Shown here piece by piece: positions 34,217 through 64,000 of a stretch of DNA of 64,000 bases. The first letter of the stretch is position 1, and the number at the start of each line of letters is the position of its first letter. The position numbers were made by a program, and so were the translations under genes. A model generated the notes under the pieces. The model saw only the letters and a list, made by a program, of their open reading frames with translations. It searched no databases and had not been told where the DNA came from. The stretch lies in IMG/VR virus record IMGVR_UViG_3300008107_000002, one strand, 5' to 3'. The DNA is from a virus. Taxonomy: Duplodnaviria; Heunggongvirae; Uroviricota; Caudoviricetes.

Positions 34217-35041
34217 TTAAATTTCAAATAATTGTGTAATCTCGTCTCTTATATCTTCGTAAGGAACAATGTTTATAGCCTGTCCTTGAAAGCCGTCTAA
34301 TATAATTTTTATGGCCTTTTTCATATCTATACCCTTACTTTGTAGGTAGTATAGTTTATCAAAATTAAGATAGGAAGTACTACATCCTTGTGAAGATTCT
34401 ACGCCGTCACAGTCTACGTGTATATCAGGCTTACTGTAACATCTTCCGTTTTCTCCTATAACTAGGTTTGAAGATTCTATGTGGGTTTCGCTGCCGTCCG
34501 ATCCTTGTTCTAAAACAGACATTGATTGAAAAACTGTCTGACTATCTTTGCCTGCTATTCCTAAAATAACTTGATTACTAACGGTATCACAATGTCGATG
34601 AACTGTTTTAGTAATAATTTCGGTATCGCCACCAACTGTATTCATCATAAGACCGTAAGCATTAAATTCGCTACCTTCTTCGGGATACACTTGAATAATG
34701 TGCTTGTTTAACTTTCCGCCCTTGACAAATATTCCAAAATTGATTGCTCCGCCTTCTTCAACATGAACATCGTACAAAAATACTTGTTGAAGTTTGCTAT
34801 CTGCCTCATTAATAACAATAAGATCTAATTTAGCTTCAGCTTTTACATTGATCTTTATATGCTTCGCAAGCAGTTCTTTTTCAGTTGGATTTTGTCTTAA
34901 TACCATCATGTTTACTTGTTTTTCTGCAAGTTCGACAGTATTTGCATCGATAAGTTTAAATTCCTTACCTATGTATTTTTCTGGGCTGTATTGCCAATCC
35001 GGGTCGCCCTTTTCGGCTTTAAGAAAACTGTGAATCGCCAT
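34217..35041 (-). CDS. sufD: SufD/SufB-family (SUFBD beta-helix) protein, short form
   Basis: 274 aa; 23-nt overlap with sufC upstream as in suf operons; C-terminal SufBD-like region (GIFVKGG...QSMSVLEQGSDGSETHIESSNLVIG...YLQSKGI). Confidence 0.7.
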   Translation of the reverse strand: MAIHSFLKAEKGDPDWQYSPEKYIGKEFKLIDANTVELAEKQVNMMVLRQNPTEKELLAKHIKINVKAEAKLDLIVINEADSKLQQVFLYDVHVEEGGAINFGIFVKGGKLNKHIIQVYPEEGSEFNAYGLMMNTVGGDTEIITKTVHRHCDTVSNQVILGIAGKDSQTVFQSMSVLEQGSDGSETHIESSNLVIGENGRCYSKPDIHVDCDGVESSQGCSTSYLNFDKLYYLQSKGIDMKKAIKIILDGFQGQAINIVPYEDIRDEITQLFEI

Positions 35042-35744
35042 CTTCTATAATCCTTTTATATAATTCTTTATTACCCTGTTCTTTAATTTCGCCAGATACT
35101 AGGATGTGTACATGAGTGGGATTTACGGCATCTAATATTTTTTTATTGTTGCTAATAATTAATATACATTTGTCTTCATTAATATAGCTATTTAAAATAG
35201 TAGATACAATATCAATGTCCTCGTCTTCCATGTGTACATCAATATCGTCTATGAGAATAAAATCAGGATCACACATAAGCATTTGTAATAATTCATTCTT
35301 CTTAAGATCTGATTTTGATATATCGTCATAATCCATAAACTTTTGAGAATGAAATTTTTCCATACTTAAAAGGTCGCAGAACGAATTGTAATCTTTTTCT
35401 ATTTCTTGTTCGTTTCGTGGATCTGATCTTGATTTAAGGGTAGCCTTAACAAGTTCAATATTGATGAGTCCGGGTATTTCTGGCGGGTATTGAAATGTTG
35501 AAAACATTCCTAATCTAGCACGATCTTCTGCATCTAATTTTTTAAGATTTTTATTTTTATATGTAATACTGCCTTCTGTTTGTATAAGGCCCGGGTGTCC
35601 GCTTATAAGATGGATTAGACTACTTTTTCCAGATCCTCTTGGACCTAGTATAGCGTGTACTTCTCCTTTTTTAATTTCTAACGAAACATTTTTTAGTAAT
35701 TCTTTATGGTCTATTACGGCAGACACGTTTTTTATTGTTAGCAT
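35019..35744 (-). CDS. sufC: SufC Fe-S cluster assembly ATPase (ABC-type)
   Basis: 241 aa; Walker A GPRGSGKSS, SufC-like LGMFSTFQYPPEIPG, ABC signature and Walker B LILIDD/IDVHMED. Confidence 0.88.
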   Translation of the reverse strand: MLTIKNVSAVIDHKELLKNVSLEIKKGEVHAILGPRGSGKSSLIHLISGHPGLIQTEGSITYKNKNLKKLDAEDRARLGMFSTFQYPPEIPGLINIELVKATLKSRSDPRNEQEIEKDYNSFCDLLSMEKFHSQKFMDYDDISKSDLKKNELLQMLMCDPDFILIDDIDVHMEDEDIDIVSTILNSYINEDKCILIISNNKKILDAVNPTHVHILVSGEIKEQGNKELYKRIIEDGDSQFS

Positions 35745-41109: not shown

Positions 41110-41932
41110 TGTCGTATTCCGTAAGTAATGCACCGTCTCGTATTCGAGTTTGGGTGTTTCTACTATTTAGCAGGATTACAGCAAGCCGCCGTCCTTGATC
41201 TTTAACGATCATTACAAGGCATCCACCTGAGATTCTAATCCAACCTGTTTTACTTAACAAGACGTTGTGCGTGTTAGTAACTAATGAATTGGTAGTTTTA
41301 AAATCTATAAAATATGACTTCTTTTTTCCTTGAACTTGTATTTTTCCGGTAGATTTAGTTGAAAAATTACGTATATCATCGTAATTATATGCGGTACTAG
41401 TAAGTTTAATTAGATCAGTTGCCGTGCTTACATTATTAGGATCTAAACCAGTAGGGTCACTAAAATGTGAATTATACATCTGAAGATGAAACGCCTTTTG
41501 GTTCATTGCCTTTATTGCGGCATCAGTTCCTCCGGGATATAATTCTGCTAATAGTGCCGCCGCCGAATTATCGCTACTCATAAGAGAGAGTAGTAATAAA
41601 TCGGCCCTAGTAACAACTGTGCCTTTGGGCAATTTACTAGTTGTTCCGGTTGGTTTATGAAATACTATTTTTTCTGATAAATCTTGTTTGGCGTCAAGTA
41701 CTACAATAGCAGTCATCAACTTTGTTATTGATGCAATACTTCTTATTTCTTCTTTATTTTTTTCTGTAACAATTTCGCCTGTATCTATGTCTTGCACAAC
41801 ATAGCTAGTGGCGAGAATGTTATTTCGATTATTGTAAGATTTTTTTTGGTTAGCATGTACAGGCGCAGATAGAATAGCCGATATAATTAGGGCATTAATT
41901 ACGTTTTTCAACAATCTTATCAATAAGTCCAT
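41081..41932 (-). CDS. D-alanyl-D-alanine carboxypeptidase (peptidase S11, PBP5/6-like) with signal peptide
   Basis: SxxK (SITK), SxN (SSDN) and KTG (KTGWI) motifs in order; signal peptide [27 protein letters not shown] if the start is at 41932. Confidence 0.85.
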
Positions 41933-42482
41933 ATTCAAGGGTTTCCTGGGCACTCATAAATTTATCCCTTTCCATGTCCTGAATTAACTGCCCATATGTT
42001 TTACCCTTGCTATTATGTTTAACATAAATGTTGGTTAAATTTTCTTTCATTTTTAGGATCTCACGTACTTGGATTTCCATATCTGTAGCCTGTCCGCCTG
42101 CTCCGCCACTGGGCTGATGTATCATGTGACGAGCGTTGGGAAGCATATAACGTTTTCCTGGTGCACCTGCTTGTGCTAGTAGACTACCCATAGAACAGGC
42201 TTGACCCATAACATAGGTGCAAACATCTGGCTTGATAAACTGCATGGTATCATAGATGCTCATACCTGCTGTTACAACTCCACCGGGACTATTAATATAA
42301 AAATTGATATCCTTGTTGCTATCTTGGCTTTCAAGATGTAAAAACTGTGCAACAATAACATTGGCACTGTGATCATCAACTGGTCCATTAAGAAATACAA
42401 TTCGCTCATTGAGCAATCGACTATAAATGTCAAACGCACGTTCTCCTGTGCTTGTTTTTTCAATTACCATTGGAATTAACAT
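41895..42482 (-). CDS. clpP: ClpP serine protease subunit
   Basis: 195 aa; catalytic Ser context [10 protein letters not shown], His in MIHQP, Asp-containing C-terminal region; high similarity to bacterial ClpP throughout. Confidence 0.92.
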
Positions 42483-45000: not shown

Positions 45001-45074
45001 TGGAGCGGGATAGCGGAATCGAACCGCTGACTATAACTTGGAAGGATATCGTTTTACCATTAAACTAATCCCGC
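45001..45074 (-). tRNA. tRNA, probably tRNA-Gly (anticodon UCC), with encoded CCA
   Basis: minus-strand GCGGGAT...TCC...AGCGGTTCGATTCCGCTATCCCGCTCCA; 7-bp acceptor stem, GTTT/AAAC D-stem, T-arm AGCGG-TTCGATT-CCGCT, anticodon loop CUUCCAA (one mismatch in anticodon stem). Confidence 0.8.
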
Positions 45075-47875: not shown

Positions 47876-48580
47876 TTACTTTCTTTCGCCAAACAACTGT
47901 AACAGATTCAAGAACAAGTTGATAAAGTCCATATATAGAGTTAATGCCCCACGAACTTCAGCAGAGTCACTAGTTTCTACACTGAGTTCTTCACGAATCT
48001 TTTGTGTGTCGTAGGCAGTTAGGCCCAAAAAGATAATAATAGCCAGTGAGCTAATAACCATTTGCATTACTGTAGATCCAATAAAGATATTAACAATGCT
48101 GGCAATGATAATTGCAATCAATCCAACAAACATAAACTTACCAACGCTATCTAGATTCTTTTTAGTAAAATATCCGTAGCCGCTCATTACACCAAACAGG
48201 ATGGCCGCACCCATGAATGCACTGACAATCGATCCCATGTTGAACACAGCAAATATCATGCTAAAGCTCAGACCCATAAGTGCCGCAAATCCATGTAGGC
48301 ATAACTGTGCCACACCCTTGCTGGGATTGTTGCCTAGCACATAACTGACACCAAAGATTGCCGCTAGTGGAGCAAAAATTACAATCCACTTTAGCACACC
48401 TGTAAAAAAGAATTGTAGCAACTCTGGACTGGTCCCTATAAAATAACTAACCAACATTGATACAACGACTGCTAGACTCATATGTCCGTAGACACGACCC
48501 ATCGCTTTATTAATTTCGCCTGCAGAGCGATAGTTTAACATACCGCCATCTGTGTAGTTTGCACCAAACATATTATTCAT
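47876..48580 (-). CDS. Bax-inhibitor-1 / YccA (TMBIM) family 7-TM membrane protein
   Basis: 234 aa; about 7 hydrophobic helices and characteristic C-terminus ALTLYMDFINLFLNLLQLFGERK (cf. YccA/BI-1 LYLDIINLFLSLLRILG). Confidence 0.75.
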   Translation of the reverse strand: MNNMFGANYTDGGMLNYRSAGEINKAMGRVYGHMSLAVVVSMLVSYFIGTSPELLQFFFTGVLKWIVIFAPLAAIFGVSYVLGNNPSKGVAQLCLHGFAALMGLSFSMIFAVFNMGSIVSAFMGAAILFGVMSGYGYFTKKNLDSVGKFMFVGLIAIIIASIVNIFIGSTVMQMVISSLAIIIFLGLTAYDTQKIREELSVETSDSAEVRGALTLYMDFINLFLNLLQLFGERK

Positions 48581-52382: not shown

Positions 52383-52632
52383 TATTTTCTTCCTCTAGTT
52401 GATTCATGAATAGATTAAGTTGCTCAATTAAATTTTGACAACCTTTACGATTCATAGTAATTGTTGAAATACCAGTTTTAAAAGTTATACGACCTTCACT
52501 GGTTATTCCTATACTGTAGTATTCTTGTTCCGATTTTGGCGGTTCAATAAGAGGAACCGGAGCACGTTCTGGAAACGGGACTACGTTATAACCTTTAGCA
52601 CGTTCTTCTCGACTTTTAAACCAATTAAACAT
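52375..52632 (-). CDS. small hypothetical protein
   Basis: 85 aa ORF. Confidence 0.4.
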   Translation of the reverse strand: MFNWFKSREERAKGYNVVPFPERAPVPLIEPPKSEQEYYSIGITSEGRITFKTGISTITMNRKGCQNLIEQLNLFMNQLEEENNE

Positions 52633-52918
52633 CTTTAACTCCAGATTTCTTTTTTGCTAATTCTCGTTCGCATTGAGCAATGGCGGCGTCAAGCATGGCA
52701 GTTGTAATTTCTTTGGGATTCATTCCAAAATGCAGTTTAATTAAATCTACTCCCTGCCCGCGACTAATCATATCACGCAACATGGGATTCAATGCTATGC
52801 AACATTCCCTAACAATCAACTCGGCGAACTTTTCTATGAACTTTGTCTGCTTTTCCCAAGAATCACCCTGAGTTGTTTTAGCAGCCTCTTCCCAAAGTTT
52901 TTGAATTCGTTCGTTCAT
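52625..52918 (-). CDS. member 1 of small paralogous MNERIQ/KFAELIV protein family
   Basis: 97 aa; MNERIQKLWEE...KFAELIVRECC...LHFGMNPKE; shares a 32-nt identical DNA block with the copy at 60573-60604. Confidence 0.6.
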   Translation of the reverse strand: MNERIQKLWEEAAKTTQGDSWEKQTKFIEKFAELIVRECCIALNPMLRDMISRGQGVDLIKLHFGMNPKEITTAMLDAAIAQCERELAKKKSGVKDV

Positions 52919-53049: not shown

Positions 53050-53844
53050 TTACTTGGGCATCATCAATGCGTTGAAGTTACTTGGAACAACAATGGTCTG
53101 CACTTGTCCGTTCTTAATACCTTCACTGATGTTCAACATGGCCTGTGCCTGCATAAACGCAATTGACGCCCCTGAGTTGTTAGCCAATGCTGCCATACGA
53201 CGACTTTCAGCTTCGGCAGTCTTAACTTCAACTTCCTTCTGCTTCAATTCGTTCTTTGAACGAACCAGTGCGTTGGCACTCTCAACAACTGAGTCTGCTG
53301 GTACTACATTACGAATCAACACTTGGCTAATCATAATAGTACCGTCCAACTTTTCTTCTGCCAAGTTGCGAACGATTTCGTCTTGAATGAACTTTTCCAT
53401 TTCACCGCGATTGTCTGCCATATCTAGTGCTTCATACTTTCGTGCTGCCTTGTAGATAGCATTACGAGCATTTTGAACAATGTAGTTGTACATCACATAG
53501 GTGTCGCCTTTGAACTCTGCGTGGAAAGCCTTGTTCTTTGTAGCATACAGTTCTGATACTTGTTGTGGGTTGATGTTGTAGACAACCACAGCATCCAAGT
53601 CTTTCATCGTCGAGTTATCTTTGGCCACTGGAGTCATATTCTCCAATGAGACATTAACATCCTTGATAGGAAATGTCAGTACGTCACCGATCAACACCTG
53701 ATTGAACGAACCCGGAAGTAGTTCTCCAGGCTGTACTTGTTTGTCAAAGCCAACTCGAACACCAACTTCACCAGTTTCAATACGAGTACAACCTGTAGCA
53801 AGAACAGCGGCGGCAAGAACGGAGAGAGTCAAAATACGTTTCAT
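53050..53844 (-). CDS. SPFH/band-7 (prohibitin/HflKC/stomatin-like) lipoprotein
   Basis: signal peptide with lipobox MKRILTLSVLAAAVLATGC; SPFH-like core then Ala/Glu/Lys-rich coiled-coil (KQKEVEVKTAEAESRRMAALA); an alternative upstream start at 53925 would add a TM helix. Confidence 0.75.
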   Translation of the reverse strand: MKRILTLSVLAAAVLATGCTRIETGEVGVRVGFDKQVQPGELLPGSFNQVLIGDVLTFPIKDVNVSLENMTPVAKDNSTMKDLDAVVVYNINPQQVSELYATKNKAFHAEFKGDTYVMYNYIVQNARNAIYKAARKYEALDMADNRGEMEKFIQDEIVRNLAEEKLDGTIMISQVLIRNVVPADSVVESANALVRSKNELKQKEVEVKTAEAESRRMAALANNSGASIAFMQAQAMLNISEGIKNGQVQTIVVPSNFNALMMPK

Positions 53845-53940
53845 TTTAAATAATACCTTGTGAAAAAAGAAAAAAGCAAACAACGAAACCCAAAGCAAAA
53901 TACAAAGGGCGAAGATAACGATCATTAACCATATTAATCC

Positions 53941-54117: not shown

Positions 54118-54914
54118 ATATTAGTTGTACCCCAACTAGTTGGGCTGTTATAACTGTTGGCATTTTCCTGCACAGGTGCAGTAAATGCTTCTTCAGGTTC
54201 GACACCCAATTCACCGATTACTTCATAGCGGCAAGCACGACCTTTAGCTTCGTTGTAGTCAGTTGGAATGCTCACAACATCACGTGGATTAATCTTAACA
54301 ATAACAGTACGATCACCACCAAAGCACGACAAGTAACTCATACCGCAGAAGTGCAGACCTGTTGAGCAGGTTTGATCCTTGTTGTCGTCTACCTTGTTAC
54401 GTTCCATTTCAACTACACGACCAACGGAGTTATCCATTGTACCGCTATGCACATCCATAAAGTTATCACGAACTTTCTTGTAAGCAAGGAAATACCCGTC
54501 TGGAGTAATTGGCAAGTTATTCTTCTCCAAGAAGCCATACAGTTCGGTCACTGCTCGCTTGCTAGGGTTAGCATACAGGTTTTCCATAAAGTTAACCATT
54601 GGTTCAACTGGAAAGCCTTCTTGCAACATTTCAATCATTCGACGGGCAAGTCCAGTATTAAGGACCTCACCTTTCCAGAACAATGTTTCGCCTTGGATGC
54701 TAACATTGCCAGCACCATAGTTCAAAACAACCTTTTTAGGTTCGATGACATCTTTAACAGTATCCCAATCTCCAGCCTTAATAGCTTCTAATACCTTGGG
54801 ATAGGTAATATGTGTTTTAGAAATAGTGTGTGACTTATTTCCAATAACGACAACAACATTGCTGCCTTGAATGATAAACGGATAGCTCATTTTATACGCC
54901 TTTCTTTGCGTCAA
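54114..54914 (-). CDS. rIIB: rIIB-like protein
   Basis: 266 aa ORF immediately downstream of, and overlapping, rIIA as in T4-like phages; no independent motif. Confidence 0.55.
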   Translation of the reverse strand: MTQRKAYKMSYPFIIQGSNVVVVIGNKSHTISKTHITYPKVLEAIKAGDWDTVKDVIEPKKVVLNYGAGNVSIQGETLFWKGEVLNTGLARRMIEMLQEGFPVEPMVNFMENLYANPSKRAVTELYGFLEKNNLPITPDGYFLAYKKVRDNFMDVHSGTMDNSVGRVVEMERNKVDDNKDQTCSTGLHFCGMSYLSCFGGDRTVIVKINPRDVVSIPTDYNEAKGRACRYEVIGELGVEPEEAFTAPVQENANSYNSPTSWGTTNI

Positions 54915-57069
54915 TTAAATTTACATATTCGGCAATATCGCTTGCTTCAACGCGGTAAGTGCTCAGACTTTTCAATAACGGATACCTACGATTCACGTCA
55001 TTAAGTTTTTGTTGATATTTTGTAACCAATGCATCCGGGCTAATATTAGCGTTAGGAGCAAATCGGCGGAACAAACGATCAATATTATATGTGTAACCTT
55101 TAAACTTTTCAACACCTTTAAGTTCATTTACAATTTCTGCATACGGACTCTTGGCATCGATTAGCGTTATTACACTACTATTATACTCTAAAATGTCTGC
55201 ATGGTCAAGTTTTGATTTAACCAAACTCATCAACAATTTACTTGTATCTTTAGCAGTTAACAATGAGGCAATGTAATCTTCAAAGTTGACCCAGTTTGAC
55301 AACTTCTTAATCTCTTCAATGTCGCCTTTACGAACACCGTAGATATCACCTTTGAACAAATCGGGCAAAGCCTTAACATCGTCATACAATTCCTTACCAC
55401 TGGCATAACCTTTGGCACTTTGCATACTGAACCCGCTTAACGGAACATAGTAAAATGTAACAGCGGCATCAAATGCATCAGCCTTACCAGCGTCACGCCA
55501 TACCATGTCATCATCACTACGACGATATCCACCACCACCACGACGTACCAATTGCAGAATTGTTACATTCTTGCCCATGTTCTCACGTTCACGTTGTTGC
55601 AAGGTACTTGCGGCAAAACGTCGAGCAGTGGGCGGTTCTTGGATAGCGGCAAAGAATGCTTGAGTATTCATTGCCTTGTTCTTGTCTACCTTCTCCAAGA
55701 TCCAGATAGCACGGCTGTACACATCACACCCAACTTCTTTATAATGATATCGGGCACGTTCGCCGGCACCTGTCTTTAGGTCGTTGATGATAAAGTGGCA
55801 AGTGTCGTCTACTGGAATGTGCCATTCTTGCCATGTGATGTAATGTCCATTGGCATTTTTGGCACGATTGTCAGCATACTCTGTGACGCTCTTACCATTG
55901 CTCACTGTTTTAGTATGACGAGCTTGTTGTAACAGACGAATCTGAATGTTCCAGTTTGTAGCAAGGTCTTCAACTTTGAAGTCAAAACGAGCCATTTGGC
56001 TGTACTGTTTAGTATTGTAAGTTGGCAAGTTAGTGTCGAGCGCATACTTGGCCACAGCCGCAGTCCACAACTTATGCTCTTTCTTCTTAAACAAGAACAC
56101 AGCACGATCCCACAGATTAGGGATAGCATCTGCTTCTCGAGCAATCACAACTGCCAATGCCGTATTGAGTTGTTCCAACTTGGCTTTAATAGCCGCAATG
56201 GTTGAAGGAATGTAGCTCAGACCTTCACGTGACGCTTGGAAGTCCAACTCGCCGATAGCAAAGTGCATTTCAAGTCCGCAAGTCAACAAGTTTCGCACAT
56301 CCTGGTCAATGCTTTGATCAGCGGCAGGGATTTCAATAGGATAAGCAATATTACCCATGACAGCCACGCTACCACGACGACCTTCGTTCTTGTAACTATG
56401 CACACCGGGAATGATGTCGCGGCTTTCGTAATCAATCAGATCAAACACAAAGTCATTATTACCGTTGACAACAGGCTTAAGAACAAAGTGACGATATACA
56501 CTACGAGCTTCTTGACGGAACTTGTCAAAGTCATAACGGTCGTTGACTGAAAACTTAACTTCAACACCCGTTGGCTCGTCGGTAGCCTCTTGCATCATTA
56601 ATGCAATGCTCGGGACTCCGTCACCGTTAATGAAAGCAGAGTAAATGCCCTTAACGCCGTTTTGGATAGCAGTTACAGTAAAATTGTCAGTATAACTAAA
56701 AGGGCTTTTGGATCCCAATCCAAGAGCTCCGATAAATTCGTTGCTGGCTGTTTTTGTACTTTCAAAGTACGTGGTGTAGATTTGTGTGACTTGTTTATGT
56801 GAGAGGCCAGTCCCATAGTCTCGAATAGAAAACCAAGGTTCTAAAGTGTTTGGGAGATGAACATCAAAAGGGGTATCCTTCTTGTCCGCGGCCGCATGTG
56901 AGTCAACGGCATTACAAGAAAGTTCACGTACAATAGCACGGATCTTGTTAGCATACAAGCCCGAACTCAAAATACTGAATGCTTTGGCACTGTTACGAAT
57001 ACGGAATTCGCCAATTTCACTGACATTAGAAACAATGGCTTCGTTGACTGGAGCATTGTTAAGAATCAT
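54892..57069 (-). CDS. rIIA: rIIA-like protein (GHKL ATPase-fold N-terminal domain)
   Basis: 725 aa (same length as T4 rIIA); NSAKAFSILSSGLYANKIRAIVRELSCNAVDSH and NEFIGALGLGSKSPFSYTDNF match rIIA Bergerat-fold boxes. Confidence 0.8.
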   Translation of the reverse strand: MILNNAPVNEAIVSNVSEIGEFRIRNSAKAFSILSSGLYANKIRAIVRELSCNAVDSHAAADKKDTPFDVHLPNTLEPWFSIRDYGTGLSHKQVTQIYTTYFESTKTASNEFIGALGLGSKSPFSYTDNFTVTAIQNGVKGIYSAFINGDGVPSIALMMQEATDEPTGVEVKFSVNDRYDFDKFRQEARSVYRHFVLKPVVNGNNDFVFDLIDYESRDIIPGVHSYKNEGRRGSVAVMGNIAYPIEIPAADQSIDQDVRNLLTCGLEMHFAIGELDFQASREGLSYIPSTIAAIKAKLEQLNTALAVVIAREADAIPNLWDRAVFLFKKKEHKLWTAAVAKYALDTNLPTYNTKQYSQMARFDFKVEDLATNWNIQIRLLQQARHTKTVSNGKSVTEYADNRAKNANGHYITWQEWHIPVDDTCHFIINDLKTGAGERARYHYKEVGCDVYSRAIWILEKVDKNKAMNTQAFFAAIQEPPTARRFAASTLQQRERENMGKNVTILQLVRRGGGGYRRSDDDMVWRDAGKADAFDAAVTFYYVPLSGFSMQSAKGYASGKELYDDVKALPDLFKGDIYGVRKGDIEEIKKLSNWVNFEDYIASLLTAKDTSKLLMSLVKSKLDHADILEYNSSVITLIDAKSPYAEIVNELKGVEKFKGYTYNIDRLFRRFAPNANISPDALVTKYQQKLNDVNRRYPLLKSLSTYRVEASDIAEYVNLIDAKKGV

Positions 57070-57100
57070 TTTGCACCTTTCTGTGTTGCTGTATGTATAT

Positions 57101-57129
57101 ATTATAGCATGGTTTTACCATGCTGTCAA
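57101..57129 (-). promoter_or_regulatory. sigma70-like early promoter TTGACA-17-TGcTATAAT upstream of rIIA
   Basis: TTGACA 57129-57124, 17-nt spacer containing palindrome gcatgg-tttta-ccatgc, extended -10 TGCTATAAT; SD AAAGGTG before the rIIA ATG. Confidence 0.6.
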
Positions 57130-57133
57130 GTGT

Positions 57134-57544
57134 TTATTTGGATTCAACCGCTTTTCTGAACAAAATTTCTTGTTTAGAAAATGCTTCTATTTCCCATGGG
57201 AGATCCAGATATTTTACTCGTTTGGTAATTTTTTTACCTTTCCAAAAACATGTACCATTTACAATTTGGAAATGTCCTTTGGCAAATTGTTTAACATGGA
57301 CCATTTCGTGTGCTAAAGTACTACCGAGATCTGCCCACTTTTGAGGTTTAAGTGCAATCACATAACTATCCAAACCGGGCAGATTAGTTGTTGAACCAGT
57401 GGCATCGGGAGTAATACCTTTGGCAATTTCAATTAATACAAATTTACGACTACGTTCCAATTTGAGTTGTTTGATCAAACTAGGCATTAATGCTTCTACA
57501 TAACGCTTTAGAGTTGGACTGCGGCTTTGTACTTGGAATTCCAT
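57134..57544 (-). CDS. putative Zn-metallopeptidase-like protein (HExxH)
   Basis: 136 aa; LAHEMVHVKQ then downstream Glu; SprT/WLM-like arrangement. Confidence 0.5.
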   Translation of the reverse strand: MEFQVQSRSPTLKRYVEALMPSLIKQLKLERSRKFVLIEIAKGITPDATGSTTNLPGLDSYVIALKPQKWADLGSTLAHEMVHVKQFAKGHFQIVNGTCFWKGKKITKRVKYLDLPWEIEAFSKQEILFRKAVESK

Positions 57545-57570
57545 AGAGTCTTTCTTGTTACTATGTGTAT

Positions 57571-57599
57571 ATTATACAAGAAAAAACCAGAACTGTCAA
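57571..57599 (-). promoter_or_regulatory. sigma70-like promoter TTGACA-17-TATAAT
   Basis: TTGACA 57599-57594, spacer 17, TATAAT 57576-57571; 27 nt upstream of the ATG of 57134..57544. Confidence 0.55.
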
Positions 57600-57611
57600 C
57601 CTAGAGTACAA

Positions 57612-58253
57612 TTATACTTTTAGTATAGTGTCTACAAAATTTAAAAGCAATGGATAATGGCGGCCTTGATGATATTTTCCCTGCATCCAGCTATAACTCT
57701 CGTACCAGTGTTTTTCACTTTCTGGATGACAACCAATTAGCCCAATTCTGTTTTGTATTATCGCCATTGGGTCACCGTTTGCATAGGTTGCAATGGTTTG
57801 ATATTTTCCCTTACCTACCAACGCACAGCCGTCATAAAAATACATCTGCTCTTGCCTACCATTCCATGTTACATCTAAATTTTTAGCATGTGGTCTGTGT
57901 GTATCAGTTTTTGGGCGTGTTATATATTGCACAGCATCTACACCTTCTAACATATCTAGGTAATGCTGTCCTGCCCAATAGGCACCCATACAAATTCCTA
58001 GATACGCTCCTCCGTGTTGCACAAACTCTTTTATTTTATCGCCATTTTCACCTAACAAGTAATCAAAACGACCTGCATCACCAAATCCTCCGGGGATACA
58101 AACAAGATCCACGTCGTCAAAAAAATCCCGCTCAAGTTCATGGCGGGTAAAAATTTTAAAATTATATTTGGATCCTAGGGCTCGCATAATTCCATTACCG
58201 CTCTGAACTGAACAGTAAGGTTGATGCAGGAATAGTGCAATGCGACCTTTCAT
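57612..58253 (-). CDS. class I glutamine-amidotransferase-like (BPL_N / GATase3-like) protein
   Basis: 213 aa; LVCIPGGFGD and nucleophile-elbow-like GAYLGICMGAY. Confidence 0.5.
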   Translation of the reverse strand: MKGRIALFLHQPYCSVQSGNGIMRALGSKYNFKIFTRHELERDFFDDVDLVCIPGGFGDAGRFDYLLGENGDKIKEFVQHGGAYLGICMGAYWAGQHYLDMLEGVDAVQYITRPKTDTHRPHAKNLDVTWNGRQEQMYFYDGCALVGKGKYQTIATYANGDPMAIIQNRIGLIGCHPESEKHWYESYSWMQGKYHQGRHYPLLLNFVDTILKV

Positions 58254-58266
58254 ACTTGTATTTACA

Positions 58267-59049
58267 TTATCTTCCTATGTACACTTTGGGTTCAGCTTCG
58301 GCCCGTCTCCGTTCTTCTGTTTTAGGAAACAAATCATTGCCGTACTGAGGATACTTCTGCTGGCGGTCATAAGCTACATACATAAACATACCGCCCATAA
58401 CAAATATCATTGCCATGATAAAAAGACCTATTACAAATTCTTCCTGTAATTTTTTTAATTTTGCCTGTCTGCGTTTATCCTCAAGAACTTGACGCTTCAT
58501 TTGGTTTTTAATCAGAATACTTTGCTCTTTACTCATCTGCCGCATCATCTCTTCTACTTCCGTGTAAAGAGCACCCAATTCAGGAGGACTTTGATATATC
58601 ATTAACTCTCTTAACTCAACTTCCATTTGTTGAAGTTGTTTTCTCATTAGTACACGTTGTAGAGCACGTTTGCCTATACTGTCTTCGCCGTGATATACTT
58701 CTGTTTTGGCACGGCGTTCTTCTTCTTCAAAAATTGCCATGCATTTGTAGAAGTTATCATAGTAGGTGCCAAGATGATTGCCAATTTCGGTATAAATGCC
58801 AGTTGTTTCTCCTGCATTAGCTTTTTTGTTAAGATCTATTACACGAGCTTTTTCTTCATTGAACTGACGTTTTTGTTCGTTTGTAGCAGGTTTTTCTGGA
58901 GGATGTAGTTTTTTAAATTGGTCGTCGAGATCCTTGAGGACGTCTTTCACTTCCCCAGCGGCACCTTTTATATCTTTATAAAGTTTACATCCTGCTTTAA
59001 CAGCACTGACTGCACCATTGGCTAATGCAAACAGCGTTAATGGATCCAT
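58267..59049 (-). CDS. coiled-coil protein with C-terminal TM anchor
   Basis: 260 aa; long charged heptad region then LFIMAMIFVMGGMFMYVAY. Confidence 0.55.
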   Translation of the reverse strand: MDPLTLFALANGAVSAVKAGCKLYKDIKGAAGEVKDVLKDLDDQFKKLHPPEKPATNEQKRQFNEEKARVIDLNKKANAGETTGIYTEIGNHLGTYYDNFYKCMAIFEEEERRAKTEVYHGEDSIGKRALQRVLMRKQLQQMEVELRELMIYQSPPELGALYTEVEEMMRQMSKEQSILIKNQMKRQVLEDKRRQAKLKKLQEEFVIGLFIMAMIFVMGGMFMYVAYDRQQKYPQYGNDLFPKTEERRRAEAEPKVYIGR

Positions 59050-59091
59050 TTGCCCTCCAACCCAGTATACATTATTTAAAGGTTTGGCCGT

Positions 59092-59114
59092 AAAAAAAGG
59101 GCCAGTGGCCCTTA
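59092..59114 (-). terminator. rho-independent terminator (minus strand) after 59138..59356
   Basis: hairpin aagggcc-act-ggccctt followed on the minus strand by TTTTTTT (plus-strand aaaaaaa at 59092-59098). Confidence 0.5.
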
Positions 59115-59137
59115 TTATGTGCGTAGTTAACTATAAT

Positions 59138-59356
59138 TTATTCTTTAATTCCGAGGGTTTCTGGACTATGATTTAATCTATTACCTCTTTCATCTGAATA
59201 GAATACAGCATCCTTATCTGTTATTGTAACAGTTAAGTCGCAATGTAACAGGTCATAATCTGTAAATTCAAAATCATCTGTGTAAACACGAAATCGATAT
59301 ACCCCGTCCCCACACCAAATTAAATGTCCTTCTACGCCCTCTGCGGATAATTTCAT
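59138..59356 (-). CDS. small hypothetical protein
   Basis: 72 aa ORF. Confidence 0.45.
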   Translation of the reverse strand: MKLSAEGVEGHLIWCGDGVYRFRVYTDDFEFTDYDLLHCDLTVTITDKDAVFYSDERGNRLNHSPETLGIKE

Positions 59357-59595
59357 TTGCGTAATCCTTTAATTTCTTTATATTTAACACGTATAAAATT
59401 GTGCCAAGTCTTATCAATTTTTATGGGCAAGTCTAAATGTATAGATACCATAGGGCCTTCTAATTCATTACGCATGTTGTCAGTATAGACAGTACCAACA
59501 TAAGGAATCTTTTGGTATATCCCCTCAACTCTATCTCCAACATTATATTTGGGTTTAGGTCGATGTTCGGCAAAGTATTCAGCAAGGGTACTCAT
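59353..59595 (-). CDS. small hypothetical protein
   Basis: 80 aa ORF in ATGA-coupled chain. Confidence 0.45.
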   Translation of the reverse strand: MSTLAEYFAEHRPKPKYNVGDRVEGIYQKIPYVGTVYTDNMRNELEGPMVSIHLDLPIKIDKTWHNFIRVKYKEIKGLRK

Positions 59596-59996
59596 ATGTC
59601 TTCTAGCCGAGCGTAACGGTCAACTGGTTCACCATTTAATGCCTTCCACACTTCTTCTTTTGTGGTATACAGTAAATGATGTCTTTCTAAACAGTATCTA
59701 CGATCCTCGTCATCCATTTTATACCATTCTGTAACTGCGGTATAACTGCCATATGCATCCGATGGCATGCAATCGTTCATCCACCCTACTAACCTTTTTA
59801 GTGCAGAAATATTATTTGAAGGATGACTACGTTGTACTGCGGCCGCAAAATCATTCGCCAGCACGGCAGTAAAAAAACCGCCTGGATCAAATCCAAAGAT
59901 TAGGTAGTTGTACATAGGATCGGCAAAGTCTTTGTCAACTTCCCATTTACTAAAAGTTGCTCGTAGCCGCCCTTTACTGTATTCAGTTAGTTTCAT
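59592..59996 (-). CDS. hypothetical protein
   Basis: 134 aa ORF in ATGA-coupled chain. Confidence 0.5.
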   Translation of the reverse strand: MKLTEYSKGRLRATFSKWEVDKDFADPMYNYLIFGFDPGGFFTAVLANDFAAAVQRSHPSNNISALKRLVGWMNDCMPSDAYGSYTAVTEWYKMDDEDRRYCLERHHLLYTTKEEVWKALNGEPVDRYARLEDI

Positions 59997-60337
59997 TTTT
60001 TCATCTCCGCAAGTTTACCAAATCCAAATTCTAGTTCAATCCACGGACGATCCGCATCATCACTCCACGCTCGGTCACCAGAAACATAAGCACGGGTAGC
60101 AACTTCGTCTAAAACTTTCGCCACAATCAACTCGGCGAACTTTTTTGTATCAAAGTGTAACTGCCCGTCTACTAACGCACCATCTACACGATGACTCCAA
60201 CATTGCTTTTCTAATTCTTCGATTTTGTTGTTTGACATAGATTTAATTTTGTAAGCATATGGCCCTTTACTACAGACATGTGCAACGTCAAAGTCTGGAT
60301 AAGTATCTCCACAATGTATACATGTAAGTCGATTCAT
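59993..60337 (-). CDS. Zn-ribbon + MNxKIExLEKQ/KFAELIV family member 2 (fused)
   Basis: likely starts at MNRLTCIHCGDTYPDFDVAHVC (ATGA overlap with the upstream small ORF); internal MSNNKIEELEKQ...KKFAELIVAK. Confidence 0.55.
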   Translation of the reverse strand: MNRLTCIHCGDTYPDFDVAHVCSKGPYAYKIKSMSNNKIEELEKQCWSHRVDGALVDGQLHFDTKKFAELIVAKVLDEVATRAYVSGDRAWSDDADRPWIELEFGFGKLAEMKK

Positions 60338-60492
60338 AGTCCTACTTGCTTTCCAAAAATACAATACACCTCAAACCATTTAGAGGGAGGATTCTCTAAC
60401 CAATATGGATTCTCACGGAATGTGATTTCCCAATCTCTTGACCATTGAAAATGCCTAGTGCCAAATCTAATGTTAAACCAAAGGTTGCTCAT
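60335..60492 (-). CDS. small Trp-rich ORF (52 aa) bridging family members by ATGA overlaps
   Basis: ATG overlaps the stop of 60489..60698; stop overlaps the MNRL ATG. Confidence 0.3.
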
Positions 60493-60698
60493 TCTTCAAC
60501 TCCGAAATGCCTTTTAATTTGATATTGAATATCTAAAGGATGTGCTTGACTGAATTTAGAACCAACTTCGGCACATTCCCTAACAATCAACTCGGCGAAC
60601 TTTTTACGATTGAAACTTTCAGTAGTAGAAGTACCGTTTAGTCCACACTTCACTGTCTCCGTCGCCTGTCTTTCAAGTTGTTGAATTCGTTCATTCAT
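60489..60698 (-). CDS. family member 3 of MNERIQ/KFAELIV small proteins
   Basis: 69 aa; MNERIQQLERQ...KKFAELIVRECAEVG...HFGVEE*. Confidence 0.6.
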   Translation of the reverse strand: MNERIQQLERQATETVKCGLNGTSTTESFNRKKFAELIVRECAEVGSKFSQAHPLDIQYQIKRHFGVEE

Positions 60699-60952
60699 TC
60701 TTCAACTCCGAAATGTTGTTTGATACGCTGATTGATAGCTTGAGCAGTGTGTATTGGTTCAACAGTATTAGTATTATTCTTGCCAACCCAAGTAGAACAC
60801 GCCATACATTTCCGAATAATCAACAGGGCGAACTTTTCCAACTCTGGGTACGGAGTATTCTCAAACGTGCCAGCGCCATATTCGTGGGCGTGTTCTTCAA
60901 GTATCTTAACCAATCCAGCCTGTTCAGCAAGTTCTTGAATTTGTTTGTTCAT
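60695..60952 (-). CDS. family member 4 of MNxxIQ/KFAxLIx small proteins
   Basis: 85 aa from MNKQIQELAEQ (ATGA overlap with the upstream Zn-ribbon ORF); ...KFALLIIRKCMACSTW...HFGVEE*. Confidence 0.6.
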   Translation of the reverse strand: MNKQIQELAEQAGLVKILEEHAHEYGAGTFENTPYPELEKFALLIIRKCMACSTWVGKNNTNTVEPIHTAQAINQRIKQHFGVEE

Positions 60953-61191
60953 AGCCGCTCTCCGCAATGTGGACACTTTTTAGCACTGGCATTACGCATT
61001 TCTTTCAGTGTACGATTTAGTTTACGTGCATCGCTTAATAGACGACGGATAGCGTTCTTATTTCTATCCCCTTTACTCTTGCTCAATTCTTCCTTAAGGT
61101 GCAACTTCATTTTATTCAGACGACCCTCAAAGATTTCAATAAAGCCCGTTATACCCAGACTAGAGCTTGCCGAGGTACTACTTGTGTTCAT
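60949..61191 (-). CDS. small C-terminal zinc-ribbon protein
   Basis: 80 aa; MNTSSTSASSS..., charged helix, C-terminal KKCPHCGERL; ATGA-coupled on both sides. Confidence 0.5.
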   Translation of the reverse strand: MNTSSTSASSSLGITGFIEIFEGRLNKMKLHLKEELSKSKGDRNKNAIRRLLSDARKLNRTLKEMRNASAKKCPHCGERL

Positions 61192-61382
61192 TCATCAACT
61201 CCGAAATGTTTTCCAATCTTATCATGGATCAACCATGTGTGTTTACATTCTTCTGTGTCGGGGGTATGATACTTGGCAACAGCCATACATTTCTTCACAA
61301 TCAACTCGGCGAATTTTATTTCTTGTTCAGTTGCTTGTGTGCCATAAACCTGTTCAGCCAGTTGCTTGATTTTTTGATTCAT
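61188..61382 (-). CDS. family member 5 of MNQKIKQLAEQ/KFAELIV small proteins
   Basis: 64 aa from MNQKIKQLAEQ...IKFAELIVKKCMAVAKYHTPDTEECKHTW...HFGVDE*. Confidence 0.55.
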   Translation of the reverse strand: MNQKIKQLAEQVYGTQATEQEIKFAELIVKKCMAVAKYHTPDTEECKHTWLIHDKIGKHFGVDE

Positions 61383-61602
61383 TGGTTTTATCCAAACTTG
61401 GCGTGATTCTTTCCAATTCATCTGCATGTGCAAAGCGTTGCGGGGGATTCAAATTCCAACTGTCTGCAGAGAATATCTTAACAGGTTTCCAATATTTGTG
61501 AATAATATTGTTGATGACAACAATAGCCGCAACAACAACTATAAAGCCTAACGCTGTTAAAATACTGCCTGCTAAAAATACTGCCGCCTGATCCATATCC
61601 AT
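61354..61602 (-). CDS. small membrane protein
   Basis: 82 aa; N-terminal helix AAVFLAGSILTALGFIVVVAAIVVI. Confidence 0.35.
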   Translation of the reverse strand: MDMDQAAVFLAGSILTALGFIVVVAAIVVINNIIHKYWKPVKIFSADSWNLNPPQRFAHADELERITPSLDKTNESKNQATG

Positions 61603-61605
61603 TTT

Positions 61606-61839
61606 TTAATCTCCGCCAAAATATGCTATAACCGCGTCTAAATGATGTACTAGTATTTCGTTTATACTCACGTCTTCGGGGTGCATCCAATAGCCCGTAG
61701 GATTAGCATCTGTACGTGGATTTTTCCTCCACTGCTTCAATTCTTTTTTAAGATATGAACGACATTCTTTTAAATTTAAAACTGTAATCCGATCGGCAGC
61801 TTCGCCGTCTAACGTAATAGGCCCAACTCGATTGCTCAT
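61606..61839 (-). CDS. small hypothetical protein
   Basis: 77 aa ORF. Confidence 0.45.
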   Translation of the reverse strand: MSNRVGPITLDGEAADRITVLNLKECRSYLKKELKQWRKNPRTDANPTGYWMHPEDVSINEILVHHLDAVIAYFGGD

Positions 61840-61861
61840 ATTATCACCTTAAAAAATAAAA

Positions 61862-63145
61862 TTACTTGTTTATTATAATGTCATTTCCGATAAAATTGCA
61901 AGAAGTTTTTATTTCATTTGTTAAAGAATCGATTCCTTTTTGTATAAGTCCTGCAGTATTTGGATAGTGACCGGCAAACTTGTAGTCAAGTAACAACGGT
62001 TTTTCCTTTTCTTCAAAATATCTATTTTTGAATAGTAATTCAAAATCAGCAGGGGGTTCTCCGTACTGCTCTAGAAAATTAATAACTTCTCGAACTTCAT
62101 CAAAGAAAGATGATTTTATAAATTTAAATGTTGGCTCAGTATTATCATTATTGCATTCAATGTAGTTAAAATGTGATACATTAGAATGTGTTTGTGTATA
62201 TGGATTCCTATAAGACCCTAATGCTAGGGTGTCAAGAGACATAGTATGGAGATATTGAGGATCCATATGATGGACAAAACTCATATACCTTTCTTTGTCT
62301 TTTAAATTTTTATTAACTAATCTTAAACATTTTAAATTTTTAATTCTGTCAAAAATCGTTTCAGTTAAACATTCTTTAATGTTAATATATTGATGTTTCC
62401 CATCAAAATTTTCAATCAAATAATCACCGTTTTGTATGTAGGGATTTTTTAAAACTGCGTCAAGGGTCATTGGACGTAATTCTTTATTTTGATAAATTGC
62501 CTGAACACTTATTTCATCTGGACATATATTTTCAAATGTTAATTTTAAATCGTTTTCTAAAATTCCTATGTCAGTGTGATCTTGATTCATGTGTGCAATG
62601 ATATCTACTAGAATATTCATATTCCGTTTTCGAATCTCTTTGGCCAGCTCAAAGATTCGTTCTTGAGTTTCTGGAACACGTTTTTGTTTAATTAATGTTT
62701 TTCTATCAAAGGATTGCAGACATAGAATTGCGTTATCAAAATGATATTCTTCTAGCACATCTAATAGTTCGGGCGTCCAGTACGCTGGATGAATTTCAAA
62801 AGTTTTTACACCTTTTGATTCCTTAAATCCCGGCAACAAATTTAAAATATTTTTTAATGTTTCCGGTTTCATCATTGACGGAGTACCGCCACCAAAGAAC
62901 CAGTTGCCTATTAAATTATTTTTTTCTTCTAAAATGGGACGATAAAGATCGATAATGTTTGGCAGGTAATTATTATAATATTCTGAATAAGTTAATTCAT
63001 CTTTTAATAAAACACCTGCGTAGATGCAGTACTTACAAATTGATGGACAAAATGGACTATGAACGTAGACGCTTATAGGGTTTGTACTGCTTGCCCATTT
63101 ATTTTTGATGTATTCAAATTCTACTGGGTCGTATCTTTTATGCAT
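61862..63145 (-). CDS. radical SAM enzyme, HemN/HemW-like (class C-like; no SPASM cluster)
   Basis: 427 aa; SVYVHSPFCPSICKYCIY = CX3CX2C near N-terminus as in HemN-like rSAMs; GGGTPS-like FFGGGTPSMM SAM-binding motif. Confidence 0.8.
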   Translation of the reverse strand: MHKRYDPVEFEYIKNKWASSTNPISVYVHSPFCPSICKYCIYAGVLLKDELTYSEYYNNYLPNIIDLYRPILEEKNNLIGNWFFGGGTPSMMKPETLKNILNLLPGFKESKGVKTFEIHPAYWTPELLDVLEEYHFDNAILCLQSFDRKTLIKQKRVPETQERIFELAKEIRKRNMNILVDIIAHMNQDHTDIGILENDLKLTFENICPDEISVQAIYQNKELRPMTLDAVLKNPYIQNGDYLIENFDGKHQYINIKECLTETIFDRIKNLKCLRLVNKNLKDKERYMSFVHHMDPQYLHTMSLDTLALGSYRNPYTQTHSNVSHFNYIECNNDNTEPTFKFIKSSFFDEVREVINFLEQYGEPPADFELLFKNRYFEEKEKPLLLDYKFAGHYPNTAGLIQKGIDSLTNEIKTSCNFIGNDIIINK

Positions 63146-63182
63146 GAATGACGATACTATATAGGTATAAATGTCAAAGAAA

Positions 63183-63689
63183 TTAACTATTCAATACTTT
63201 AGCAACACTATTCATAACACTGGCAATACGTCCAATATCACGTAGGTTCTCTACTGTGTAGCCTTCCGTCTTGAGTGTTTCATAATGTGCCTTAACACAG
63301 AAGTGACACTTGCCAACAATACTTGCGGCAAGACTGAATGCTTCGAAGTTGGCTTTAGTTGTACCGCCGTGGCTGGCAATGGCATTCATGCGTAACTGTG
63401 CCGGCAATCCTTTTAATGCTGGATCATCAGCCATTTCAACATATGGGTACCACACATTGTTGGTCGCCATAATTGACGCCGCTGTCATCGCCGGTTCAGC
63501 ATACACCGGATTGTCCGCAAGCATAATGCTCAACAACTTACCATTTCCTGTTGCCGCTAATGCCGCTACAGCACAGCCCATTGCTACATCAGCATCAAGA
63601 GTGCTACGCAATAACACAGCATCAATGTTTAACCGTGTATCTTTGGCATAATCTGGTAATGCTGGTTTAACTACATCAATAAAACTCAT
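63183..63689 (-). CDS. AhpD-like / carboxymuconolactone-decarboxylase-family protein
   Basis: 168 aa; AhpD core motif CxxCxxxH (CHFCVKAH) near the C-terminus. Confidence 0.7.
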   Translation of the reverse strand: MSFIDVVKPALPDYAKDTRLNIDAVLLRSTLDADVAMGCAVAALAATGNGKLLSIMLADNPVYAEPAMTAASIMATNNVWYPYVEMADDPALKGLPAQLRMNAIASHGGTTKANFEAFSLAASIVGKCHFCVKAHYETLKTEGYTVENLRDIGRIASVMNSVAKVLNS

Positions 63690-63718
63690 TTTGTTTTCCT
63701 TTTAATATTATTCATTCT

Positions 63719-63842
63719 TCAACTCCAAAACAATTTTTTAACGAAACTAAAAACAATCATAAAAATTGTAAAGTAAGCAGTCGCACCTATCATTAGCAGA
63801 TATACAATGGCCCAGCAACCTGCTCGTTCTCCTTCGTTCATT
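63719..63842 (-). CDS. small membrane ORF (41 aa) whose 3' end carries the family junction motif
   Basis: MNEGERAGCWAIVYLLMIGATAYFTIFMIVFSF...; 3' sequence ttttggagttgaagaatga is one substitution away from the family 3' motif tttcggagttgaagaatga. Confidence 0.25.
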
Positions 63843-64000
63843 TCTTTTCCTTACAGTTATCAAAATGCCATCTTGTCATTGATCCACCGCTACCTACTTT
63901 ACCGCAATGCGGACAGGTAAAAGTTTCCTTCTTACCTTGATTAGCCTGGCGTAGTTTTTCTTTAGTTTCCTCGCTTGGTGTTTTACCATAACTTGGATTA
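63839..64000 (-). CDS. C-terminal fragment of a GIY-YIG (Seg/I-TevI-like) homing endonuclease; gene continues beyond the window
   Basis: partial: ...NPSYGKTPSEETKEKLRQANQGKKETFTCPHCGKVGSGGSMTRWHFDNCKEKK*; the xSEETKxKLxxAxxGK linker and Zn-finger are typical of GIY-YIG endonuclease C-halves. Confidence 0.55.

Follow-up and report, generated by a model that had tools for sequence, protein, structure and literature searches.

The HemN-like superfamily of radical S-adenosylmethionine (SAM) enzymes is chemically diverse, and few of its members have been characterized. A significant feature of HemN is the fourth cysteine of its CxxxCxxCxC motif (C71). In the mycobacterial AhpC/AhpD system, AhpC is the partner of AhpD. 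Radical chemistry with two SAM molecules is the paradigm for HemN-like enzymes (PMC10114718, PMC12871812). In the NocN structure, the second SAM has its adenine stacked against a tyrosine, and an aspartate touches both SAMs (PMC12871812). Radical SAM cassettes also occur as variable additions in the glycosyltransferase-rich hypervariable regions of aquatic T4-like phages (pelagimyophages), where they were left uncharacterized, with family and function undefined (PMC7029224). Our literature searches on HemN-like radical SAM enzymes of phages found nothing specific, and those on phage AhpD found nothing specific and no description. Here, we analyze two adjacent genes, for a HemN-like radical SAM enzyme (rSAM) and for AhpD, in IMG/VR virus record IMGVR_UViG_3300008107_000002. 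The whole 64,000-nucleotide (nt) stretch analyzed is called the window. On the basis of its rIIA and rIIB genes, it is from an uncultured T4-like phage. Positions 61862 to 63689 hold exactly two open reading frames (ORFs), both on the minus strand.

61862..63145, minus strand: radical SAM enzyme (rSAM), 427 amino acids (aa), of a small HemN-like subfamily; core (~21-214) homologous to HemN, HemW, and NocN, remainder (~215-427) family specific
63026..63049, minus strand: codons for C33-x3-C37-x2-C40, the [4Fe-4S]/SAM cluster motif, aligned to HemN C62/C66/C69 and NocN C40/C44/C47
63183..63689, minus strand: AhpD (alkylhydroperoxidase D/CMD family), 168 aa; Pfam CMD, E = 9e-9, and a TIGR00777 match
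63285..63308, minus strand: codons for C128-xx-C131-xxx-H135, the AhpD active-site motif, aligned to Mycobacterium tuberculosis C130/C133/H137

Our best explanation, and probably the right one, is that these are two independent accessory genes lying side by side in a variable small-gene region, with rSAM an orphan HemN-like enzyme and AhpD belonging with AhpC. We regard rSAM and AhpD as independent for three reasons. Across 50 loci with rSAM homologues, which form 32 distinct groups, AhpD homologues are absent within 10 kb. A hidden Markov model (HMM) of the rSAM family matched no ORF at E ≤ 1e-3 in 80 IMG/VR viral loci (L058 to L137; 1.18 Mb) that carry 336 copies of the small-protein family (MNxRIQ/HFGVEE) encoded next to the pair. 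Finally, the GC content is 30.5% for the rSAM gene versus 44.2% for the AhpD gene. The first-pass annotation had considered a modification unit of AhpD with rSAM plausible and the small-protein neighborhood suggestive, and neither idea survived these counts. As judged by co-occurrence, rSAM has its partner in neither AhpD nor the small-protein array. AhpD is a known type of protein in a phage setting; the rSAM subfamily is uncharacterized.

The rSAM subfamily

Database matches to rSAM comprised about 49 full-length clusters (E values of 1e-157 to 1e-28). A sharp gap followed, and HemW, HemN, and HemZ proteins started at ~1e-13. When 1.84 billion representatives were searched exhaustively with a profile, 22,247 HemN-like sequences matched at E ≤ 1e-3 and just 260 at E ≤ 1e-30. 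In a neighbor-joining tree, the family formed a clade apart from HemW and HemZ, and its phage members (P0001 to P0010) were monophyletic inside that clade. NCBIfam equivalog models for HemN, HemZ, HemW, STM4012, and ChuW/HutW scored rSAM 5- to 15-fold under their cutoffs, with 65.5 bits versus 324.95 for TIGR00538 (HemN), 47.9 bits versus 205.4 for TIGR00539 (HemW), and 40 bits versus 400 for ChuW/HutW. The enzyme appears to be neither a coproporphyrinogen oxidase nor a HemW protein. As judged by these searches, it is a member of a small, uncharacterized, and distinct HemN-like subfamily. Among GenBank phages, megablast of positions 57000 to 64000 gave no match at the DNA level, and tblastn of rSAM gave weak core-domain matches alone.

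The first-pass annotation described a CX3CX2C cluster near the N terminus of the 427-aa ORF and no SPASM cysteines, and both points held. C33, C37, and C40 stand in a HemN-type context, YVHSPFCPSICKYC, and are the only invariant cysteines in a 22-sequence family alignment. The other six cysteines of rSAM are variable, and therefore rSAM has no SPASM/twitch or other auxiliary-cluster motif. The position of HemN C71 is taken by an invariant tyrosine (Y42) in the family. Pfam found Radical_SAM alone in rSAM (E = 5.6e-12, residues 27 to 184). HemN_C (PF06969), which had been proposed as a profile to look for, gave no match to rSAM at E ≤ 0.01 and was absent from the C-terminal halves of 18 family members even at E ≤ 1. 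Profile-profile alignment (hhalign) with HemW-type proteins had a probability of 99.9% over 185 columns but covered residues 21 to 214 only. A PDB profile search with rSAM returned HemN and NocN as the only sequence matches (NocN, E = 5.8e-15), and HemN was the best structural match by a wide margin. The predicted model of the isolated C-terminal half was too poor for use (pLDDT 68.7, pTM 0.40).

HMMER alignments paired rSAM Y27 with HemN Y56 and NocN Y34, H29 with HemN H58, GGGTP (85 to 89) with HemN 111 to 115, E117 with HemN E145, Q144 with HemN Q172, R156 with HemN R184 and NocN R171, and D181 with HemN D209 and NocN D196. Y27, E117, Q144, R156, and D181 are conserved across the family (for the roles of these residues in HemN-like enzymes, see PMC12871812 and PMC10114718). 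Because residues that hold both SAMs in HemN and NocN (the tyrosine, GGGTP, and the Glu, Gln, Arg, and Asp above) are kept, class C-type chemistry is most likely, and rSAM is most likely a class C-type two-SAM radical enzyme. The first-pass annotation had assigned it the HemN/HemW-like architecture of class C enzymes. The HemN-like core, the conserved SAM residues, and the lasso contexts described below agree with this, but a HemN_C-like C-terminal domain, a class C hallmark, is undetectable by sequence.

Such an enzyme would be expected to bind one [4Fe-4S] cluster through C33, C37, and C40. The cluster-bound SAM (SAM-I) would be cleaved to give a 5'-deoxyadenosyl radical, which would abstract hydrogen from a second SAM (SAM-II) at its methyl group. 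The resulting methylene radical could then alkylate the substrate, most simply by C-methylation, or abstract hydrogen from it. The substrate would be held mainly by the family-specific C-terminal half.

How rSAM compares with described enzymes can be summarized as follows. It is 16 to 19% identical to E. coli HemN (CgdH; PDB 1OLT) and shares its radical SAM core, CX3CX2C and GGGTP included. Unlike E. coli HemN, it lacks the N-terminal trip-wire, the fourth cysteine, and a sequence-detectable HemN_C, and its genomic contexts lack heme-pathway genes. The core is also homologous to that of HemW (TIGR00539), but the alignment stops at residue 214 and the HemN_C/HNxxYW region (motif as in PMC10114718) is absent. 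With the class C methylases (NocN/NosN, TbtI, C10P, and ChuW/HutW) it shares a HemN-like core and the equivalents of NocN Y34 and D196. Also like these methylases, some bacterial family members are encoded within clusters for ribosomally synthesized and posttranslationally modified peptides (RiPPs), here of the lasso type. Unlike them, its C-terminal half does not resemble HemN_C-type domains in sequence, and the equivalent of NocN R153 is variable. Several phages have a class I methyltransferase gene that overlaps the stop codon of rSAM, an arrangement that recalls the C10P/C10Q pair (PMC12871812, PMC6050322).

The GC content of the rSAM gene (24% at third codon positions) makes it a clear low-GC outlier in the window (37.6%), with local minima of 25 to 26% at 62100-62550. 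The gene has no obvious Shine-Dalgarno sequence. Among strain variants it has zero to three synonymous changes and no nonsynonymous ones. These synonymous-only changes, together with family motifs that are invariant at 30 to 59% identity, indicate that the gene is under constraint. With ~260 representatives, the subfamily is compact and clearly bounded. It has a confident model, conserved SAM residues, and a new C-terminal half, which make it a tractable target.

AhpD, its module, and the small-protein family

The 168-aa protein had been described as an AhpD/CMD-family protein with a CxxCxxxH motif, encoded immediately upstream of rSAM, and this was confirmed. Pfam matched CMD, and the motif reads C128-H-F-C131-V-K-A-H135. 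The alignment with M. tuberculosis AhpD (1GU9) is full length (E = 5.6e-22), with the catalytic Glu, Cys, Cys, and His kept; E116 of the phage protein corresponds to E118. TIGR00777 gave 109.9 bits, which is under its trusted cutoff of 191.95, and the core-domain model TIGR00778 was passed (28.5 versus 27.8 bits). By these comparisons, the protein is a genuine AhpD. By analogy with M. tuberculosis, its CxxC/His/Glu site would serve to re-reduce the peroxiredoxin AhpC.

Upstream of AhpD, the window ends within a homing endonuclease gene.

63719..63841, minus strand: 40-aa hydrophobic ORF between the endonuclease and AhpD genes (ORF list); called as a gene in contig L144 too
63838..64000, minus strand: 3' end of a NUMOD3-type homing endonuclease gene, cut by the window edge; its translation, …GKTPSEETKEKLRQANQGK…CPHCGK…, corresponds to the 223-aa NUMOD3 protein of contigs L141 and L144
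Window 63183-64000; L141 5961-9963; L142 4600-7349; L092 547-2026; L055 7450-8507: AhpC…AhpD module

The AhpD-rSAM junction recurs in four further contigs, L141 to L144, each from another sample, so it is not an assembly artifact. The adjacency is constant in all five assemblies of the window phage. L141 is 99.9% identical to the window across 12 kb and reveals genes past the window edge, in the order AhpC-TSA, two 65-aa ORFs, aldolase II, p210, GDSL esterase, NUMOD3 endonuclease, AhpD, and rSAM. The endonuclease gene is present in L141, L144, and the window and absent from L142. We considered AhpC at the window edge and rejected it: the fragment upstream of AhpD is the endonuclease, and AhpC lies 3 kb further out (L141/L142).

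Searches detected 5,880 AhpD homologues, and the best 120 clusters listed were 86 to 95% identical. Homologues at 95% identity raised the possibility that the end of the window is host DNA or chimeric. This was rejected because the homologues checked on long contigs have phage-like contexts with AhpC and the junction is found in four other assemblies. In a 360-kb contig (encoding ClpX, IF3, S21, and ClpS), AhpC-TSA is 3 kb upstream of AhpD, and in 138-kb contigs (Cpn10 and DnaJ) it directly abuts AhpD. AhpC, GDSL esterase, and AhpD genes are contiguous in phage contigs L092 and L093. The order AhpC-aldolase-…-GDSL-AhpD is seen in L113, and AhpC and AhpD are adjacent in L055. At the protein level, AhpC, the aldolase, and the GDSL esterase of L092, L093, and L113 are 82 to 90% identical to those of the window phage, and AhpD is 67 to 90% identical. 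The module elsewhere always ends at AhpD and never includes rSAM (L092/L093 and L113), and no rSAM of the family was found in the L092/L093 and L055 loci. Because the module recurs with AhpC and always ends at AhpD, we take AhpC to be the partner of AhpD in the phage. Across unrelated phage contigs that share the module, AhpD is 67 to 95% and AhpC 84 to 90% identical.

As in the M. tuberculosis AhpD/AhpC system (PDB 1GU9 and 1KNC), the alignment spans the full length, the catalytic residues are kept, and an AhpC-TSA peroxiredoxin gene is in the same block. Unlike that system, the module is phage encoded, AhpD scores 110 versus 192 bits on TIGR00777, and three to five unrelated genes (plus a homing endonuclease gene in some strains) separate AhpC from AhpD. 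Nucleotide similarity between the window and other phages with the module (up to 89%) is confined to positions ~63182-63702, essentially the AhpD ORF. Between the window and L141 there are ~13 mismatches over the 12 kb. They include eight differing codons in AhpD and no difference in rSAM. The AhpD codon differences suggest endonuclease-associated allele exchange of a mobile cassette. Exchanged between unrelated phages and lying beside a homing endonuclease gene, the module cleanly exemplifies a mobile auxiliary cassette for oxidative stress.

On the other side of rSAM are two small genes and the small-protein array.

61606..61839, minus strand: 77-aa ORF (p77), directly downstream of rSAM; 22-nt gap, good Shine-Dalgarno sequence (AAGGTGA)
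61354..61602, minus strand: 82-aa predicted membrane protein (ORF list)
61188..61433, minus strand: small-protein member (MNxKIK… / KFAELIV.KC / …HFGVDE) by family HMM/alignment
60695..60976, minus strand: small-protein member by family HMM/alignment
60489..60698, minus strand: small-protein member by family HMM/alignment
59993..60364, minus strand: divergent and longer small-protein member by family HMM/alignment
52625..52918, minus strand: dispersed fifth small-protein member, 8 kb from the array; HMM E value improved from 3e-9 to 1e-24 with a seven-sequence profile; 72% identical to an L092 gene

By HMM and alignment, the paralogues of the window (four adjacent and a fifth copy) are one real family. 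Its proteins are conserved at the N terminus (MNxKI), the center (KFAELIV.EC), and the C terminus (HFGVE). The family has at least 7,894 clusters, versus ~49 for rSAM in the same database, and is thus more than 150-fold commoner. It forms arrays in many phage contigs, typically with 2 to 14 copies per ~20-kb locus. Near rSAM it was found in 1 of the 32 locus groups, that of L001 and L002. The co-occurrence that the first-pass annotation had named as a check was seen in none of the 80 viral loci with small proteins, where rSAM was absent within 10 kb, and L001/L002 is the sole exception among rSAM loci. The genes p77 and the 82-aa ORF also have homologues at loci that lack rSAM: a p77 homologue (65% identical) adjoins small-protein genes in L098, a locus without rSAM, and an 82-aa homologue (55% identical) has no rSAM nearby in L092. 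No Pfam, PHROG, or PADLOC match was found for the small proteins, p77, or the 82-aa protein, and PHROGs and PADLOC also gave none for rSAM or AhpD. Therefore, no known phage family or defense system applies to these proteins. The small-protein family is very large, multicopy, widespread in phages, and wholly unannotated.

Genomic contexts and possible substrates

Among bacterial relatives, P0029 and P0034 (70% identical, from two related Syntrophorhabdaceae-type genomes) are encoded in lasso-type clusters with the order PqqD, Asn-synthase-like cyclase, HPr-kinase-like protein, sulfotransferase, and rSAM. In one of the two, a transglutaminase-like protease and an ABC exporter follow. A lasso precursor peptide was sought in one of the clusters (L005), and none was found with confidence. 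Runs of "Collar"-domain genes adjoin these clusters, and L146 has a CysN/C-type APS-kinase gene nearby and a second lasso-type cluster.

L005 3520-11763: lasso-type cluster with HPr-kinase-like protein, sulfotransferase, and rSAM
L146 3348-10365: lasso-type cluster with the same three genes
L146 14240-19365: second lasso-type cluster, with a PqqD-TylF methyltransferase

A Verrucomicrobiales rSAM gene is flanked by two HlyD-like genes and two 2OG-Fe(II) oxygenase genes and adjoins a gene for a 9,748-aa protein. In Termititenax, the homologue is fused to an N-terminal extension of ~300 aa and stands between four other radical SAM genes on one side and DegT and two GT2 genes on the other. In marine T4-like phages, it lies between core genes (gp23/gp19 and uvsY/uvsW/gp55), and a CmcI-like Methyltransf_24 gene overlaps the rSAM stop codon. 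Accessory neighbors there include a Methyltransf_24-GT2 fusion (eight locus groups), an FkbM methyltransferase, and GT1 or a flavin-dependent halogenase.

Overall, these contexts suggest a tailoring function for rSAM, which keeps company with other tailoring enzymes. The association with RiPPs is direct in one bacterial sub-clade only, and the phage clade has no fixed partner. The presence of rSAM in some phages and its absence from their relatives, in variable regions rich in glycosyl- and methyltransferase genes, resembles the pelagimyophage "host recognition cluster" (PMC7029224). Unlike those cassettes, the rSAM gene of the window is in an rIIA-proximal small-gene region and does not adjoin the tail fiber genes.

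Other genes near rSAM were noted in several lineages. Genes of the tryptophan-halogenase family (flavin dependent; Pfam E ~6e-89) overlap the rSAM 3' end in two contigs. Two different freshwater-type phage lineages have polyglycine-rich gp38-like (PF05268) adhesin genes adjoining rSAM, on the downstream side in one lineage and on the upstream side in the second. We rejected them as a conserved partner, as the window has no homologue. Genes for large B12-binding radical SAM proteins (600 to 700 aa) are within 10 kb of the HemN-like gene in at least four lineages, including the window phage. These proteins are 23 to 30% identical among the window phage, L013, and the L006/L009 pair, and L006 and L009 share 52%. 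In PADLOC, the protein of L141 gave a match to candidate family PDC-M51A (E = 5.6e-15). The B12-binding protein could be a recurrent partner of the HemN-like enzyme.

L031 11236-12822 and L033 6405-8033: halogenase genes overlapping the rSAM 3' end
L001 11306-12244 and L011 10-786: gp38-like adhesin genes
L141 136-2244 (~8 kb past the window edge), L013 4848-6671, L009 4852-6714, and L006 10653-12494: large B12-binding radical SAM proteins
L011 2823-4244: 473-aa B12-binding radical SAM protein of a fifth lineage, unrelated to the large type

The SufCD proteins reported elsewhere in the phage were found as described, 27 kb from the rSAM/AhpD pair.

35019..35744, minus strand: SufC-like ABC ATPase (Pfam ABC_tran, E = 4e-18)
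34217..35041, minus strand: SufB/SufD-core protein (Pfam SUFBD_core, E = 2.4e-32)

As a general possibility, they might load clusters into both rSAM and the B12-type enzyme.

Several observations weigh against independent genes or against two-SAM chemistry. AhpD and rSAM are 37 nt apart, and p77 follows rSAM after 22 nt. A promoter and terminator scan found nothing exceeding shuffled expectation and predicted no terminator between AhpD, rSAM, and p77. With such tight packing, the three genes are probably cotranscribed. In L001, the closest long relative (rSAM 51% identical), two strong small-protein matches lie ~3 kb downstream of rSAM and a weaker one ~1.4 kb upstream, which leaves some room for a lineage-specific link. 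The family contexts are heterogeneous, peptide versus glycan, and identify no substrate. The phage clade may also differ in function from the lasso-associated bacterial clade (29 to 36% identity). As for chemistry, the position of NocN Arg153/HemN Arg166 ("NR.S" motif) is variable in the family. Nor could the contacts made with the second SAM by the C-terminal domain (in NocN, through the I302 backbone) be traced in rSAM, and for that reason two-SAM chemistry is not assured.

Proximity and probable cotranscription, the L001 genes, the lasso-type clusters of bacterial relatives, and the phage-encoded SufC/SufBD would all fit a single RiPP maturation unit, with the small proteins as precursors of rSAM, redox support from AhpD, and clusters from SufCD. 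We consider such a unit very improbable. The co-occurrence statistics strongly disfavor it: small-protein clusters (at least 7,894) greatly outnumber those of rSAM (~49), the 80 loci with 336 small-protein copies lack rSAM, L001 and L002 are the only rSAM loci with the family, and the fifth copy is 8 kb off. Moreover, the small proteins are conserved at both ends and in the center, as a folded domain would be and unlike a leader with a variable core. Pfam and PHROG found no RRE/PqqD, protease, or exporter among the genes scanned around rSAM, whereas the lasso clusters have them. AhpD is never syntenic with rSAM elsewhere and has its own partner in AhpC. Dropping the idea of a phage RiPP unit spares follow-up effort. 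Also improbable is an auxiliary metabolic role in which rSAM, as a HemN/HemZ dehydrogenase or a HemW-type chaperone, raises the heme supply of the host. The best NCBIfam and structural matches are indeed HemN, HemZ, or HemW, and one database member of the family is named "coproporphyrinogen III oxidase-like." However, the scores are far under the curated cutoffs for HemN and HemW, homology ends at residue 214 with HemN_C and the HNxxYW region absent, tyrosine replaces the fourth HemN cysteine, and no context holds heme-pathway genes, the neighbors being tailoring enzymes.

With rSAM and AhpD taken as independent genes, the family contexts point to the tailoring of a peptide, protein, or glycan-like molecule, not heme. 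A peptide or protein target and a glycan or small-molecule target appear comparably likely, with heme unlikely. It is conceivable, if doubtful, that the phage-clade enzyme acts on a glycan, lipopolysaccharide, or other nonpeptide as part of the surface-modification gene pool of aquatic T4-like phages. The Methyltransf_24 (CmcI-like), GT1, GT2, and FkbM neighbors in marine phages, the DegT and two GT2 genes in Termititenax, and the radical SAM cassettes in glycosyltransferase-rich pelagimyophage regions (PMC7029224) are consistent with this, and the window phage has GT4, aldolase II, GDSL esterase, and NAD-dependent epimerase/GDP-mannose-dehydratase-like genes. However, the known class C substrates that we reviewed are sp2 carbons, aromatic or olefinic, of peptides, heme, and polyketide-type molecules and include no sugars (PMC12871812, PMC10114718), no transferase gene adjoins rSAM in the window phage, and adjacency is weak evidence in the mosaic accessory regions of T4-like phages. 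A more speculative and less probable reading is that the rSAM family is a new functional HemN-like branch with its own C-terminal substrate domain that catalyzes radical C-alkylation. In the bacterial sub-clade this might be an undescribed modification of phosphorylated or sulfated lasso peptides, and in the phage clade it might act on a peptide, a protein, or a surface glycan during infection. The two lasso-type clusters offer a concrete substrate system in which the chemistry of the family could be found.

Other genes of the window

The auxiliary-gene set of the window is unusually rich. Besides the SufBD and SufC genes given above, it comprises the genes listed here, which are shown with rIIA and the single tRNA gene.

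11282-13549: ClpB-like double-AAA+ chaperone
19097-19879: PhoH
36170-37210: UvdE UV endonuclease
38114-39073: NAD-dependent epimerase/GDP-mannose-dehydratase-like protein
41081-41953: D-Ala-D-Ala carboxypeptidase (Peptidase_S11)
45001-45074, minus strand: tRNA-Gly(TCC)
47876-48580: Bax1-inhibitor-like membrane protein
53050-53925 (L092 8529-9323): Band7/SPFH protein
54892-57069: rIIA (PHROG 612, E = 3e-128)
57612-58253: GATase/BPL_N-like protein

The Band7/SPFH proteins of the window phage and L092 are 96.6% identical. Other genes common to the two phages are 50 to 80% identical, and the L092 region retrieved has neither rIIA nor rIIB. The Band7/SPFH identity suggests recent swapping of accessory genes between these phages within a common pool.

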